Assembly: GCA_963748625.1 (NCBI GenBank)
Contig: CAVVJT010000010.1
Location: forward strand, 192,001-256,000
From: an uncultured Chloroflexia bacterium
Lineage (GTDB): Bacteria > Chloroflexota > Limnocylindria > Limnocylindrales > CSP1-4
DNA: 64,000 nucleotides
Direction: 5' to 3'
Position numbers and translations under genes: made by a program. Under the pieces are notes generated by a model. It ran no database searches. It was not told where the DNA came from and saw only the letters and a list, made by a program, of their open reading frames with translations. This document shows, piece by piece, positions 7,724-36,284 of the stretch. How positions within the stretch are numbered: position 1 is the stretch's first letter; the number at the start of each line of letters is the position of its first letter.

Positions 7724-7800
<77 letters not shown>

Positions 7801-31839: not shown

Positions 31840-32094
31840 ATGGCGCTTCCGCTCGTCGCATACGAACCATCACGCATCCAGGACACCGATCCAGGCCGTC
31901 TCGCTCCCCACCGGATCAAGCGCTGCACGTACCGCCGCCTGATCGCGTTGGATCGCCCGCGGGAGCGTGTCTACGAGGTCGAGTGCCTCTACCCTGACCG
32001 CAAGGTCCCGATCCCCCTCGGTGATCTCGAGTCGTCCACCCCGGTCTGCAACGGCTGCACGGCCGCGCACATCTTCCGCGCGGACGAGGACTAG
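31840..32094 (+). CDS. Hypothetical 84-aa protein with four Cys
   Basis: GAGG RBS, high-GC3 codon use, C...C...CxxC. Confidence 0.65.
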   Translation: MALPLVAYEPSRIQDTDPGRLAPHRIKRCTYRRLIALDRPRERVYEVECLYPDRKVPIPLGDLESSTPVCNGCTAAHIFRADED

Positions 32095-32129
32095 CACCGG
32101 ACACGCCGCGACGCGGCGAAGGGTGCGGT

Positions 32130-32162
32130 GAGGCGCCAGCGAGGCAGCCTGTAAGCCGAGTT
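32130..32162. repeat. 33-bp direct repeat (displaced rnpB 3' end, att-like)
   Basis: GAGGCGCCAGCGAGGCAGCCTGTAAGCCGAGTT identical to 35929-35961. Confidence 0.95.
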
Positions 32163-32455
32163 GCTCCCGACGCCACGCTTGAGCGTGGAGCGGACCCGTC
32201 CCGTGAGCGTGAGCCCGTCTATTCCGTCTACGCAGATCGAGCCCAACCGTATGCAGAAACGTATGCAACTCTGAGCACCCCCGGACGCTGCCGCTCCGAG
32301 CTCTCCGGCCAGGGCCGGGATCGCCGTCGGCCCGCGGAGCCGTCCCGCGTGACGAGTGTCAGACGTCAATCGCGGATGCTGTGACCGTTGGCGCCTCATC
32401 CGTCACCTCACCCGCGACCCCGAGCCCGCGCCACCGCCGGCAGCCGGGCGGTGGC

Positions 32456-33007
32456 CTACCCGACCGCCGACTCCCAGCGATCGCCCCACGACTGGAACTC
32501 GGCGTTGATGACGCTCGAGTCCCATCCGCCCCCTCCGGCCGCTCCGACGATGTCCAACAGTTCCTTTGCCGCAATGCGGCTGTACCGGGCCATCGGAAGC
32601 GCATCGAGGAGATGCGCGGCGTAGTCCAACGCTTCCTGGGTGAAGAACCCGCTGTCAAGGACCCGGTCCCAGTAGTCCAGGAACCAGTAGTGATCCCAGC
32701 TATCCCAGTCCTGCACTCTCGCGGGCTCGCCCGACTGAGCGTAATCGACGATGCGCCGCGCTTCCCATACATCCGATACGCCCGCCATGATGCCCATGGT
32801 CGCCCCAAGGGAGTCGCCGTCTATCCGGAAGACAGCACTCCCCTTCGGGGGGGGCCAGCCTGGTGCCCAGTCGACCGAGGTCACATCACGGAGGTCGACC
32901 CACCGTTCGCTCTGGAGATCGATGGCCCGATAGTTGGTGACGACGAGGTTGCCGGTGGACTTGCCGATCTCCTCGCCTGGATCGAGCGGAAACTCCCCGA
33001 CCTTCAT
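32456..33007 (-). CDS. Hypothetical protein, N-terminus resembling a bacterial PH domain
   Basis: LDPGEEI...GNLVVTNYRAI pattern; Trp/Asp-rich C-terminus. Confidence 0.6.
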   Translation of the reverse strand: MKVGEFPLDPGEEIGKSTGNLVVTNYRAIDLQSERWVDLRDVTSVDWAPGWPPPKGSAVFRIDGDSLGATMGIMAGVSDVWEARRIVDYAQSGEPARVQDWDSWDHYWFLDYWDRVLDSGFFTQEALDYAAHLLDALPMARYSRIAAKELLDIVGAAGGGGWDSSVINAEFQSWGDRWESAVG

Positions 33008-33174
33008 CGTCGACGGGAGGCTGCGGGCTGAGGAGCCCCTTCCGAGATGTCGAACTGCGAAGTCGGCCGGTCAACCAGATCTGGTATGGCAGCGGTATCG
33101 GCCGTGACCGTCCCTCCGCTATCCATGACGAGGCGGTACCGAAACATGTCGTCGATGCTGAATGGTCTCGACAT
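33004..33174 (-). CDS. Hypothetical 56-aa protein
   Basis: GGAGG RBS, MSRPFSIDDMFRYRLV..., ATGA overlap with the next gene. Confidence 0.4.
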   Translation of the reverse strand: MSRPFSIDDMFRYRLVMDSGGTVTADTAAIPDLVDRPTSQFDISEGAPQPAASRRR

Positions 33175-33313
33175 CAATCACCCCTCCCGGTTTGTGTCTG
33201 ACTGGCACGCACCGTGGGCCGAAGGGGACGAACACACCAAAAGGCGGACAGGCCGCGCTGGGCGAAGTCTCGGTGCCCGACCCTCAGAAGTGCCCTGCGC
33301 CAGCTGAACTAGC

Positions 33314-33571
33314 TCAGTAGGGCAGTAGAACGCGTTGCCGTTCATCCTCCAGCCGTGCATACCAGCTGGAGGCGTCATTCTGTGTCGCGAGGCCATCTAC
33401 CAGTTTCAACCGCGTCCCGGACATCCGAATCCCAACGGAGTAGGGGCCAGGGTGTTCCCCGATGTCGCCGGCGTCGAGGGTCGCGCTGCTGAGGCAGACC
33501 GGATGGAACCAGTAGCTGTGAAACTCGATTCGGGGCGGACCGTCCTCGCGCCCGCAACTGATGCAGCTCAC
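33314..33571 (-). CDS. Hypothetical zinc-finger protein (CxxC-x16-HxxC)
   Basis: AGGAGGAGG RBS before GTG; CISC...WFHPVC. Confidence 0.65.
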   Translation of the reverse strand: MSCISCGREDGPPRIEFHSYWFHPVCLSSATLDAGDIGEHPGPYSVGIRMSGTRLKLVDGLATQNDASSWYARLEDERQRVLLPY

Positions 33572-33804
33572 TTTGCCTCCTCCTTTGCGGGGACGAGCGC
33601 CAATGTCCTGGACGAACTGCAGACAGCCACTCAGGCTGTCGATCTAGCGGCGAGCCCCGTGCGTTGCCTTGACCGGGGACGTTTCACCAGCATACGGGAC
33701 GCGAGAGGCTCGCCGCAGGGCGCCTCGTGGAAAGGTCGCCGCCTCAACTTGAGGGCTGAAGGTGGGTCCGGACACATAGGCGACATTGGCCGGCGCCGCG
33801 GGGC

Positions 33805-34788
33805 TCACGTTCGCGCCGACACGACTGCAGCCGGCGACCGCACCAGGGAGACCAGGAGCACCGAGACCATCACCGGGACGACCAGCCACGCGCCGAACCG
33901 AAGGCCGCCGCCCGCGTTGCCCGCGAGCGCGGGCAAGCCGTAAAGCAGAGTCCCAGACCACACTAGGGAGGCGACTGCGGCAAGGGCGGCGATTGCCATG
34001 CCGCGCCGCCGGCGCCATCGCACCGAGGCGGCGCCCGCGATCAAGAGCAGTGCCAAGCCGATGGAGAGACCCCCGAAGACCACGTACTGCGGGTCATTCG
34101 GACTCGCGACGATGAGGGCGATACCTGCGAGTCCGGGCAGGCACGCCTCGAACAGGAGTAGCCATACGGTGCTCTCCACGCGCCAACTCTCACCGGCAGA
34201 CGCGGAGCGAAACAGTGGCAGGAGTGCCGGGACGAGCAGGAGCCCTACGATCGGCGGAACCTGGCCGAGGGCGATCGCCCCGACGAGGACTAGTACGAGG
34301 CCGAGGGCAACCAGACCACGCACGCTCAGCGGCAGGCGAGACTGCGAGCGTGACCCTGGCCTCGGGGCATTCCATTGCGCAGTAGCCGGTCGCGCTCCAT
34401 ACCTGTCACCGTCCGTCCGCGGGGTCCCCCGATGGCCCTCGTCACGCCACCTCGCACGCTGGTGATCGCGGCCTGCATCCTGCCCGCCGGCTCCCGGTGG
34501 GCCGGTGGGCTCGGGCCTCGGCGGAGCGGCGGCGGCCCCAGACCCGCCGCGTTCGGCCTGACGGCGGGCTTCGATGAGCAGGTCCCGGTCGTACGCCGTA
34601 CGTTTGGCAGGGTCACGCAGGATGGTGATGATCGCGTTCAGCTCGGCGGACGACTTCGTGCGGCGGTGCGTGTCGCGAGGGTCCTGGTTGAGATCGGGGT
34701 GAATGAGGCGAATCCGCTCGCGATACGCCAGTTCGATCTCTTCGATCGATGCACCGGGCGAGACCCCGAGGATCGCGTAGTAGTCCAA
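33805..34788 (-). CDS. J-domain (DnaJ-like) membrane protein
   Basis: DYYAILGV, HPD, LRDPAKRTAYD, multiple C-terminal TM segments; start uncertain. Confidence 0.85.
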   Translation of the reverse strand: MDYYAILGVSPGASIEEIELAYRERIRLIHPDLNQDPRDTHRRTKSSAELNAIITILRDPAKRTAYDRDLLIEARRQAERGGSGAAAAPPRPEPTGPPGAGGQDAGRDHQRARWRDEGHRGTPRTDGDRYGARPATAQWNAPRPGSRSQSRLPLSVRGLVALGLVLVLVGAIALGQVPPIVGLLLVPALLPLFRSASAGESWRVESTVWLLLFEACLPGLAGIALIVASPNDPQYVVFGGLSIGLALLLIAGAASVRWRRRRGMAIAALAAVASLVWSGTLLYGLPALAGNAGGGLRFGAWLVVPVMVSVLLVSLVRSPAAVVSART

Positions 34789-34999
34789 GCTCCCGCATCC
34801 GCTCCGTGCAATCCGGCGGCCGGATCGAGCATCGACGAAGGGGCGGGGAGCAGTCCCATTCGCCGGTGACTATACGACTAGTCCCGTTGGGCTTGAGCGC
34901 AGATCCGACGGCTCCGCGGGAGGCCAGCCGGCGGCAAGACTACGAGTTGGCGGCGTACCCTGCGTGGCACCAGCGCCGATCGGAGGATGGACGACAGCC

Positions 35000-35227
35000 A
35001 TGGGTCTCTCGGAGGGGATCACCGGACACTGGATCAAGTTGGTCGGACGCGAGCCGACCGATCCCGAGCAACTGGATCTCCTGACGCTCGTCCAAACGAA
35101 CGGCGAGGCCCGGGTCCTGACATGCCTCTCCGGCTACTTGGAGCTCCGCCCTAGGGAGCGGCCCGGCACGGTCGGCGCCCAGGAGTTGATGGCGTTCCTC
35201 AGCCTGTGCGCAGACGTGGTGCTCTGA
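35000..35227 (+). CDS. Hypothetical 75-aa protein
   Basis: ORF with protein-like composition, GGAGG upstream. Confidence 0.4.
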   Translation: MGLSEGITGHWIKLVGREPTDPEQLDLLTLVQTNGEARVLTCLSGYLELRPRERPGTVGAQELMAFLSLCADVVL

Positions 35228-35612
35228 GCCTTCACGCAGTCGAGTCGCTGGCGCTCGATCGGCGGACCGAGACTCCATCGAGGCCAACACCCGTGGCAGC
35301 GCAGGAGCCTCATACCGCTCGGGTGCCTGCGGTCGCGGTGGAGATCGAAGAGCATCCGGCCGAACAGCTGCCGCTCCCCCTCCATGCAGAACCAGCCTGG
35401 GTTCTGACCTGCGACGACGAAACGCTCAGTCCGGGTCATCGACTCCACGTCGCCAGGCCACGGCTCACGCACGCCCAACGGCAGCCGGGTGCCGGTTTCG
35501 GTGTCGAACAGGATGCGGAGGCCGGCCAGGACCAACTCCTCGACGCGCGCGGACGCGCGCGTCGGTCGCGCTCGAAGGCCTCGAGGTCGGGGTCGATCAC
35601 CGGTTCCGACAT
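35134..35612 (-). pseudogene. Probable frameshifted hypothetical gene
   Basis: GGAGG-ATG at 35612 (MSEPVIDPDLEAFERD) changes frame in a CG run near 35550 to VEELVLAGLRILFD; 3' end uncertain. Confidence 0.4.
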
Positions 35613-35928
35613 CGGACCTCCTGGCTCAGCTCGTGAATGCGCGCCTGCACCGGGCCCAGACTAGTTGTCAAGCTGGCGGGCCGTACCGCATACCGGTAAG
35701 CACGCTGCGAGGCTGTGACCGGCAGCGGCGGGCCCGTGCGACCTCACTCGGCGATCCCCCGCCAACTCCTCAGATTCTAACTTGCGGGCCCACGAGGGCA
35801 GCCGACGAGGTGTCGGGAGTCGCCGACTGCTCCTACCGGACCTCGACGAGGTCGCCACCTAGTCCCCAACCGTACGCGGGCCCTCCGAGCGAAGCCGCCA
35901 GGGGGCCATTTCACGCACGAAATTATGG

Positions 35929-35961
35929 GAGGCGCCAGCGAGGCAGCCTGTAAGCCGAGTT
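35929..35961. repeat. 33-bp direct repeat (rnpB 3' end, att-like)
   Basis: Identical to 32130-32162. Confidence 0.95.
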
Positions 35962-36284
35962 CTGTATCACGACCTTGCGGTCGCGATGACGGTCATCCAT
36001 CTGAGGCCGCCGGTTGCCCGACGGCTCATGCAGCCGACCCGAGGGCTGGGCAGCGCACCTCTCCCCCCGGCGAACCGGGGTTGCGCCCTCCTATTTGGCC
36101 TTGCTCCGGGTGGAGTTTGCCGCGTTTCACTCCGGCACCCGAGGGGCCGGCATCGTCACTGTGGCACTGGTCCTCGCCTCACGGCGGACGGGCGTTACCC
36201 GCCACCCTGCGCTGGGGAGCTCGGACTTTCCTCAGGCCGCCCGGTTGCCCGGCCGACCCGCGACCATCCGGCCGCCTCGCTGGC
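35934..36284 (-). ncRNA. rnpB: RNase P RNA (bacterial type A)
   Basis: Minus strand GAGGAAAGTCCGAGC, AGTGCCACAG, GAGCAAGGCCAAATAG, ACAGAACTCGGCTTA; P1 pairing GCCAGCGAGGC/GCCTCGCTGGC; TACACT -10 at 36291-36296. Confidence 0.97.

Follow-up and report, generated by a model that had tools for sequence, protein, structure and literature searches.

Remnants of integrative and conjugative elements (ICEs) or of integrative and mobilizable elements (IMEs) that are still flanked by attachment (att) sites but lack recombination and transfer genes are known as cis-mobilizable elements (CIMEs) and were described for the ICESt1/ICESt3 family of Streptococcus thermophilus. In lambda and mycobacteriophage L5, the phage attachment site (attP) carries paired arm-type sites for integrase binding on both arms. 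Islands and prophages of the Islander class have been described as placed by tyrosine integrases within the 3' parts of tRNA and tmRNA genes; such a gene, once split, is made whole again with island sequence, the displaced 3' fragment is found in direct orientation at the far end, and the integrase gene lies beside the restored gene (PMC4383910). A study on dusA-specific integrases describes a distinct lineage that keeps, in many genomes, to a single conserved chromosomal gene (PMC4482086). Here, we describe an island at the 3' end of rnpB, the gene of the RNase P RNA, in a stretch of 64,000 nucleotides from an uncultured Chloroflexia bacterium (GTDB lineage Chloroflexota; Limnocylindria; Limnocylindrales; CSP1-4; assembly GCA_963748625.1, contig CAVVJT010000010.1, positions 192,001 to 256,000). 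The whole stretch is called the window, and its features are given in positions counted from its first letter. The island is very probably the decayed remnant of a tyrosine-integrase element that belongs to a family targeting rnpB.

The rnpB gene is located on the minus strand at 35935-36279 and is intact. It matches the bacterial class A RNase P RNA model (RF00010) with 187.3 bits over model positions 1-367 of 367. A 33-nt direct repeat with 100% identity is present at 32130-32162 and 35929-35961, both copies having the same orientation at a spacing of 3799 nt, with 3766 nt of DNA (32163-35928) between them. When up to three mismatches were allowed, these two copies were the only matches in the window, and none of 100 dinucleotide shuffles contained any match. 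In the whole 4.63-Mb assembly, the 33-mer and all its 16-mers and 20-mers occur exactly twice each. The copy at 35929-35961 consists of the last 27 nt of rnpB and 6 nt past the gene end. According to the cmscan alignment, the 27 nt correspond to the conserved ACAGAAC-UCGGCUUAC stretch from AACUCGG on, where the gene reads ...AACUCGGCUUAC, and beyond it to the 3' strand of the terminal helix (P1). An initial annotation, made from the sequence alone, had described a perfect 33-bp duplicate of the rnpB 3' end in the same orientation 3.8 kb from the intact gene and had assigned it to the P4 strand plus the P1 strand; the repeat search (33 of 33 positions identical) and the cmscan alignment agree with both statements. 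The target is of the RNase P RNA class (RF00010) and not a tRNA or tmRNA gene. None of the latter is nearby, the sole tRNA gene of the window being found at 7724-7800.

The chromosomal side of the site can be recognized by a conserved small ORF of 84 aa (31840-32094, plus strand). This native neighbour is convergent with rnpB, has homologues in all congener loci examined, and matched no Pfam or NCBIfam family. The region was searched against 40 relatives, and the locus was taken from 19 congeners, of which 18 have both flanks on one contig and one (G022) has them on two. The comparison with related genomes that the initial annotation had suggested did yield an uninterrupted site. It is present in 8 of the 18 single-contig loci (G001, G002, G003, G007, G010, G011, G018, G024), where only 9-72 nt, free of any insert, separate the stop codon of the small-ORF homologue from the 3' end of rnpB. 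G012 and G015 have an empty-type arrangement too, as judged from coordinates alone. In the window, a spacer of 35 nt separates the small ORF from the displaced rnpB fragment. Since the order is small ORF, spacer and then displaced fragment, the copy at 32130-32162 (minus strand) is taken as the original chromosomal end of rnpB and the present end as having arrived with the insert. The former constitutes the gene-distal att site, which has the chromosomal flank on one side and the left arm of the island on the other and adjoins the native spacer as in the empty sites. The latter, at 35929-35961 (minus strand), is the island-borne copy of the att core and now supplies the functional rnpB 3' end. 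The displaced copy parts from rnpB exactly after ...GCCGAGTT, and the same break point was found in 11 other aligned islands.

Among the 70 genomes of the genus, about a dozen have islands with different cargo at the same position, as do one genome of another genus and six metagenome contigs. The 28-nt rnpB end is present in 53 of the 70 genus genomes and occurs twice in 5 of them, while less exact second copies were found in G005, G050 and G043. The gene and its partial copy lie on one contig in the window (G000, island of 3.8 kb), G005 (11.2 kb), G057 (7.8 kb), G050 (4.6 kb), G043 (2.4 kb), L059 from another genome (4.65 kb) and the metagenome contig L056 (1.8 kb). The G041 island is split across two contigs, and only the left junction is available for G045. 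In all these islands, the partial copy leaves rnpB exactly after GCCGAGTT. Their cargo varies: the islands of the window and of G057, for instance, are common only over their first 175 nt, at 81% identity. The empty sites in congeners, together with a junction structure that recurs with different cargo, bear out the att-type geometry of an integrase-mediated insertion. A repeat-bounded rnpB insert of 7.5 kb was also observed in G058 (L033; 2011-2100, 9400-9502). It has a G/T-rich start of low complexity, a C/T-rich end and none of the arm motifs of the family; it resembles an artefact of assembly or sequencing, or else some unrelated element, and is treated as suspect.

The islands share conserved arms. 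On the left side, about 110 nt just inside the partial copy can be aligned across islands, ending in a tandem motif near AATGAGTGCAGAAACGTGTGCA. The left arm of the window (32163-32340, plus strand) aligns with those of 10 other islands, with 81% identity over 175 nt to the G057 arm, and includes the tandem 11-12-nt motif ACCGTATGCAGAAACGTATGCA at 32246-32267. On the right side, just inside the intact gene, the islands have in common the order of tandem motif (in the same orientation), hairpin, palindromic block and core. The right arm of the window (35866-35928, plus strand) aligns with 14 other right arms and consists of one surviving motif half (35866-35877), the hairpin (35878-35907), the palindromic block ATTTCACGCACGAAAT (35908-35923) and 5 further nt. 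The stem sequence of the hairpin varies between islands while the pairing is kept. RNAalifold gave only a weak consensus hairpin for 15 right arms (-7.1 kcal/mol), and the stem is argued here from its visible changes between islands and not from this score. A T-run comes after the hairpin on the plus strand in relatives, which fits a terminator of the integrase gene.

The paired direct repeats of 11-12 nt have the same orientation on both arms, their distance from the core being about 85 nt on one and about 56 nt on the other. With up to three mismatches, a search of the 70 genus genomes returned 12 matches to the 22-nt tandem motif, spread over 10 genomes, compared with 2 for a reversed-pattern control; each of the 12 is at the end of an island, next to rnpB or to its partial copy. 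Judging from position and conservation, the tandem motifs are candidate arm-type integrase-binding sites. Right arms without a left repeat were found in G009, G060, G081 and G022. The presence of the conserved arms only beside rnpB and of tyrosine-integrase genes or their remnants abutting rnpB in relatives supports the earlier proposal that an element family targets this gene.

As for the integrase itself, a six-frame search detected no match to PF00589 on the contig of the window and none inside the sister islands of G005, G022, G041, G057 and G058. When the islands of G043, G045, G050, G060 and G081 were searched in the same way, the sole match inside an island was a weak one in G081. It corresponds to a frameshifted integrase C-terminus (…IRFHDLRH… / …LGHSDYGTTLKVYAHL…; HDLRH...LGHSDY...Y), the stop codon of which is located 5 nt before the right-arm motif. 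Weaker internal integrase remnants are present in G050 (E 2e-6) and G041 (E 0.002). A metagenome scan for right arm plus core returned the six contigs mentioned above, and three of them (L053, L057 and L058) contain a 140-aa C-terminal fragment of the same integrase. Scanning species-representative genomes with this fragment led to two useful loci, L059 and L060. L060, which is G222 from another genus of the family, contains an ORF of 339 aa with a PF00589 match of 84.5 bits and a SAM-like core-binding domain. The ORF is convergent with rnpB; its stop precedes the motif by 8 nt, and the 3' end of rnpB is 86 nt away. In L059 (2957-4375, plus strand), a 472-aa ORF combines an ABC-transporter ATPase, fused in frame, with the last ~122 residues of the rnpB-type integrase inside the 4.65-kb repeat-bounded island. 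The integrase pieces are 70-89% identical to L060 (L053 70%, G081 89%).

A vestige of this gene is left in the window. The last 11 codons of a tyrosine-integrase gene (LLLPDLDEVAT) and a TAG stop are found at 35827-35862 (plus strand) and align with the ends of L060 (...RTLPALEDVAT*) and G081 (...RTLPTLEEVAT*). No integrase sequence is recognizable upstream of 35827, the best tblastn match of the window with two full-length integrases having an E value of 6.6. The initial statement that no integrase remains thus applies to the recombinase domain, for which the contig has no match, but not to the very end of the gene, which persists.

The closest other relatives of this integrase are associated with tRNA genes. 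In the family sample of 401 genomes (G420 and G270 enter the tally only), the next-nearest proteins to the L060 integrase reach 51% identity or less. The 11 nearest loci of this kind were examined, and at 9 of them a tRNA gene has its 3' end facing that of the integrase gene at a distance of about 70-120 nt; these genes are Pro-GGG (four loci), Gln-CTG (two), Arg, Thr and Lys (one each). At the other two loci, no RNA gene was found in the flank examined. Integrase paralogues within the genus are located at tRNA-Pro(GGG) as well. The rnpB layout is the tRNA layout with another RNA gene, in the same convergent arrangement. Since the integrase of the rnpB family is most similar to integrases placed in this way against tRNA genes, the simplest reading of the unrooted comparison is that the integrase lineage probably switched its target from tRNA genes to rnpB. 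Two integrases akin to the rnpB type have a c-di-GMP-II-GAG riboswitch (RF03169, 65-69 bits) no more than about 1 kb away (L047 2355-2439; L089 1037-1121).

The anatomy of the locus and its relatives suggest how the present arrangement may have arisen. Site-specific recombination by a tyrosine integrase would have placed an element in the last ~27-33 nt of rnpB. The attP of this element would have carried a copy of the rnpB end, and the insertion would thereby have rebuilt a complete rnpB from island DNA (35929-35961) and pushed the original 3' end (32130-32162) 3.8 kb away, beside the old neighbour of the gene. The element family very probably uses rnpB as bacterial attachment site (attB), of which the small ORF marks the chromosomal side, and in less decayed members, the integrase gene ends a few bases before the right arm, convergent with rnpB. 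In this genome, deletions have taken out half of the right-arm motif and all of the integrase but its last ~12 codons, and the gene of a J-domain membrane protein and several orphan ORFs are left over.

Several observations weigh against this explanation, which we nevertheless hold with high confidence. The tyrosine recombinase gene is absent from the island of the window apart from its terminal codons, and a perfect repeat (33/33) is odd beside an island that is so heavily decayed. A demonstrably complete element was found nowhere, the six metagenome contigs holding integrase fragments only. Compared with its tRNA-type relatives, the integrase of L060 is short of about 90 residues at the N-terminus, the arm-binding region among them, and neither a left repeat nor a left motif was found in G222 with up to three mismatches. 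Two integrase fragments, L063 (54 aa) and L067 (40 aa), have no rnpB within 4 kb. Moreover, the function of the arm motifs is deduced solely from their position and conservation. No excision product, circular junction or junction-spanning read was obtained for this genome. Four public runs were examined, the best of which holds 0.17 of the sampled words; no public contig bridges 32162/32163 or 35928/35929, at a depth of only about 2x and with parts uncovered.

The island could also be non-autonomous and still mobile, both att sites being kept and moved in trans by an rnpB-type integrase encoded elsewhere or incoming, in the manner of the cis/trans mobilization of CIMEs. Such mobility would account for the perfect att cores and the well-preserved left arm, and tandem arrays in relatives point in the same direction. 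The attP arrangement (right arm, core, left arm) is found in L053, L057 and L058, and in L053, such a unit is in tandem with a second unit adjoining rnpB. L057 (2970 nt) and L058 (3017 nt) agree at 99.6%; the two ends of the contig are identical over 70 nt in the former and over 120 nt in the latter, which gives a unit of about 2.9 kb with an attP-like junction and only the 140-aa integrase fragment. A circle or a tandem repeat fits these terminal overlaps equally well, since an assembler would close a unit of a tandem array into a circle. With circle and tandem alike, the sequences indicate that more than one element used the rnpB site in succession. In G022, one contig (C96, L036 1-49) leads from the neighbour ORF straight into rnpB, as in empty sites, and another (C90, L037 746-871) has the right arm joined to rnpB. 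This pair of junctions fits a population that is polymorphic for the island, which would again suggest mobility, or a mixture of strains in the bin.

The genome of the window itself speaks against mobilization in trans. It is 98.3% complete and has four PF00589 genes, none of them on this contig. It gave no match to the L060 integrase at E<=1e-40, and its matches to the G081 fragment were Xer-like only (41-44 aa, E 6e-5 to 2e-4), which leaves it without a close relative of the rnpB-type integrase. Of the two motif repeats of the right arm, one is missing. In this strain, no joint skipping the island was detected: the sole island-skipping contig shows 9 differences in 99 nt and 6 extra letters and must, given these differences, originate from the empty site of a relative. 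We regard mobilization in trans as unlikely for this island, which is most likely fixed and immobile here. Of the two options named in the initial annotation, a remnant or an element mobilized in trans, the former is favoured.

An artefact of assembly or binning, by which foreign DNA was joined through a short shared sequence, could be suspected from the draft state of the genome, its estimated contamination of 7.74%, the lower GC content of the insert, the unbridged junctions and the artefactual appearance of the low-complexity ends in G058. Nonetheless, the contig is 1.4 Mb long, and the repeat is only 33 nt in length and has no copies beyond the two. The same junctions, break point and homologous arms recur in at least seven other assemblies and in metagenome contigs from other samples. 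Furthermore, island-internal pieces were found at 99-100% identity and about 2x depth in the four public runs, which come from three studies, and the best holder may be the source sample. An artefact, which the initial annotation had named as a possible refutation, is highly improbable because independent assemblies repeat the same architecture with different cargo.

Another mechanism could be invoked as well: a DEDD recombinase of the IS110 type, a DDE transposon whose target duplication is long, or recombination, be it illegitimate or homologous, at a hot spot downstream of rnpB. In G005, an IS110-family (DEDD) transposase gene (L013 2125-3216) lies just inside the left arm, 135 nt from the partial rnpB copy, and rve-type DDE genes are present in two sister islands. 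The space between the small ORF and rnpB is also occupied by unrelated genes without repeats in other congeners: a gene of an MFS transporter in G019, G020 and G009 (L017, L018, L019), an ORF of 880-895 aa without Pfam match in G016 and G008 (L014, L016), and a SnoaL-like gene in G014 (L020). The spacer next to rnpB hence varies independently of the island family. IS110 was rejected as the agent, as the G005 copy is inside the boundary of the left arm and has near-equal copies elsewhere in that genome, which identifies it as a secondary insertion. No PF02371 match was found in the island of the window (C10:224130-227961) or in those of G057, G058, G041 and G022, and the integrase remnants are precisely placed relative to the arms. 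To our knowledge, DDE or DEDD transposition does not leave an identity block of 28-33 nt with a fixed inner edge. A mechanism of this kind has a negligible probability.

In composition, the island of the window differs from its surroundings, with a GC content of 0.63-0.70 compared to 0.70-0.76 in the flanks and 0.70-0.73 in the contigs of the genome. It contains five or six plausible ORFs, and searches in Pfam, NCBIfam and PADLOC gave a family match for one of them only, in keeping with the earlier description of the intervening DNA as lower in GC and holding orphan ORFs. The exception is an ORF of 327 aa (33805-34788, minus strand) with an N-terminal J-domain as in DnaJ (PF00226, 54.5 bits, residues 2-67), a Gly/Pro/Arg-rich linker and a hydrophobic C-terminal half. 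The NCBIfam DnaJ models cover its J-domain only and score far under their cut-offs, PADLOC gave no match, and the part outside the J-domain had no usable match in the ESM Atlas. The other ORFs matched none of the three collections. An orphan ORF of 183 aa (32456-33007, minus strand) has a coding-like GC content at third codon positions (GC3) of 0.81; in the ESM Atlas, it gave sub-threshold leads only, of at most 0.87 and including a bacterial PH domain at 0.85. Its start is overlapped by the end of a possible small ORF of 57 aa (33004-33177, minus strand), and the two are possibly co-translated. Further orphan ORFs encode 85 aa (33314-33571, minus strand) and 87 aa (34964-35227, plus strand, GC3 0.83). 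The latter is overlapped by a possible ORF of 133 aa (35134-35535, minus strand, GC3 0.86).

A 52-nt sequence that includes a GC hairpin of 9 bp (32402-32452, no strand assigned) comes shortly downstream of the 183-aa ORF and is repeated elsewhere in the genome and in congeners. Copies that are 88% and 87% identical are located at G000:C10:158541-158592 and C1:26985-27036, respectively, and many congeners have 63-nt matches with 77-86% identity, tens of kb away from rnpB. The sequence is possibly a small repeat of the terminator-like or REP-like (repetitive extragenic palindromic) kind. A different hairpin, CGCCGC-GAC-GCGGCG (32104-32118, no strand assigned), belongs to the 35-nt native spacer. 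It had been pointed out earlier as a small hairpin beside the displaced copy and as a possible original terminator, and the sequence is present and forms a GC stem of 6 bp. The fold of the region (44-nt stretch) reaches -19 kcal/mol with a z value of -2.49, and 2 of 200 shuffles fold as well. The hairpin has no T-run and was not called by the terminator scan. Prophage identity is not supported for the island: Pfam, in an analysis that did not extend to PHROGs, detected no phage structural or packaging family in the ORFs of the window or in 84 sister-island ORFs. Among the viral contigs of IMG/VR, there is no exact match to the att core, and the nearest integrases are at most 27% identical over most of their length.

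The cargo of some sister islands is of a more familiar kind. The G005 island (L013 3715-13079) encodes a Type IIG restriction-modification enzyme of 1333 aa (584 bits), a protein of 1084 aa combining HKD and SNF2 helicase domains, a HARE-HTH protein and SoFic (227 bits). In the G050 island (L040 2820-6905), a Dsr1-like protein is found along with AbiEii. A Pfam search of the 84 sister-island ORFs identified 13 families, none of them a tyrosine or serine recombinase, and in the cargo of the window, PADLOC detected no anti-phage match. The rnpB site seems to be an exchange point for defence genes in an under-studied uncultured group, since the sister islands of G005 and G050 carry anti-phage genes.

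Taken alone, the window is of small biological consequence, being a fossil with a cargo that mostly lacks family matches. The site is of wider interest. According to the TIGER/Islander announcement, 33.8% of islands lie in tRNA or tmRNA genes, 43.4% in protein-coding genes and 22.8% in intergenic regions. Island finders anchored on tRNA and tmRNA genes cannot see rnpB islands, and comparative finders may class them as intergenic. No description of rnpB as an att site was present in the literature found, although supplementary tables of island target genes may name it; in the papers found that mention rnpB, the gene figures as an item of annotation, as a marker for phylogeny or as an additional copy. 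As a single-copy, essential and highly conserved gene, rnpB has the properties thought to favour tRNA genes as landing sites, and because it shares them, it offers a natural test of that idea. Moreover, an rnpB-specific integrase with short, defined att sites would be a candidate tool for placing single copies in a gene that is universally present.

A broader scenario would join these observations. A tyrosine-integrase lineage of this Chloroflexota family would have switched from tRNA genes to rnpB, which would serve as a recurrent attB and as a swap site for defence and orphan genes. The family may include miniature att-bearing units of 2.9 kb without a complete integrase, present as circles or tandem copies and moved in trans, and the rnpB att site would be one that is undescribed in the literature found. 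We put this combination forward tentatively, as a conceivable account that falls somewhat short of an even chance.

Compared with the described systems, the locus combines known features in a new place. As in islands of tRNA and tmRNA genes, rnpB is regenerated from island DNA, the displaced 3' fragment is kept in direct orientation, and the integrase gene adjoins the regenerated gene in relatives. In contrast to those islands, the target is the RNase P RNA gene, and the copy in the window is without its integrase. The similarity with CIMEs lies in two att sites that bound DNA without integrase or transfer genes and in the tandem accretion at the same site in L053. The differences are that no conjugation or mobilization genes were seen in any member, that mobilization is hypothetical for the rnpB family, and that the host belongs to another phylum. 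The paired direct repeats of 11-12 nt, conserved on both arms of the rnpB islands, are candidate counterparts of the arm sites in lambda and L5 attP, but the sole rnpB-type integrase that looks full-length (L060) lacks the N-terminal region that normally reads such sites. Like the dusA integrases, the rnpB-type integrases form a lineage tied to one conserved gene. While dusA is a protein gene and is hit at its 5' end, rnpB is a ribozyme gene and is hit at its 3' end, by a lineage so far found in one bacterial family. The mechanism is ordinary; the target gene is unusual.

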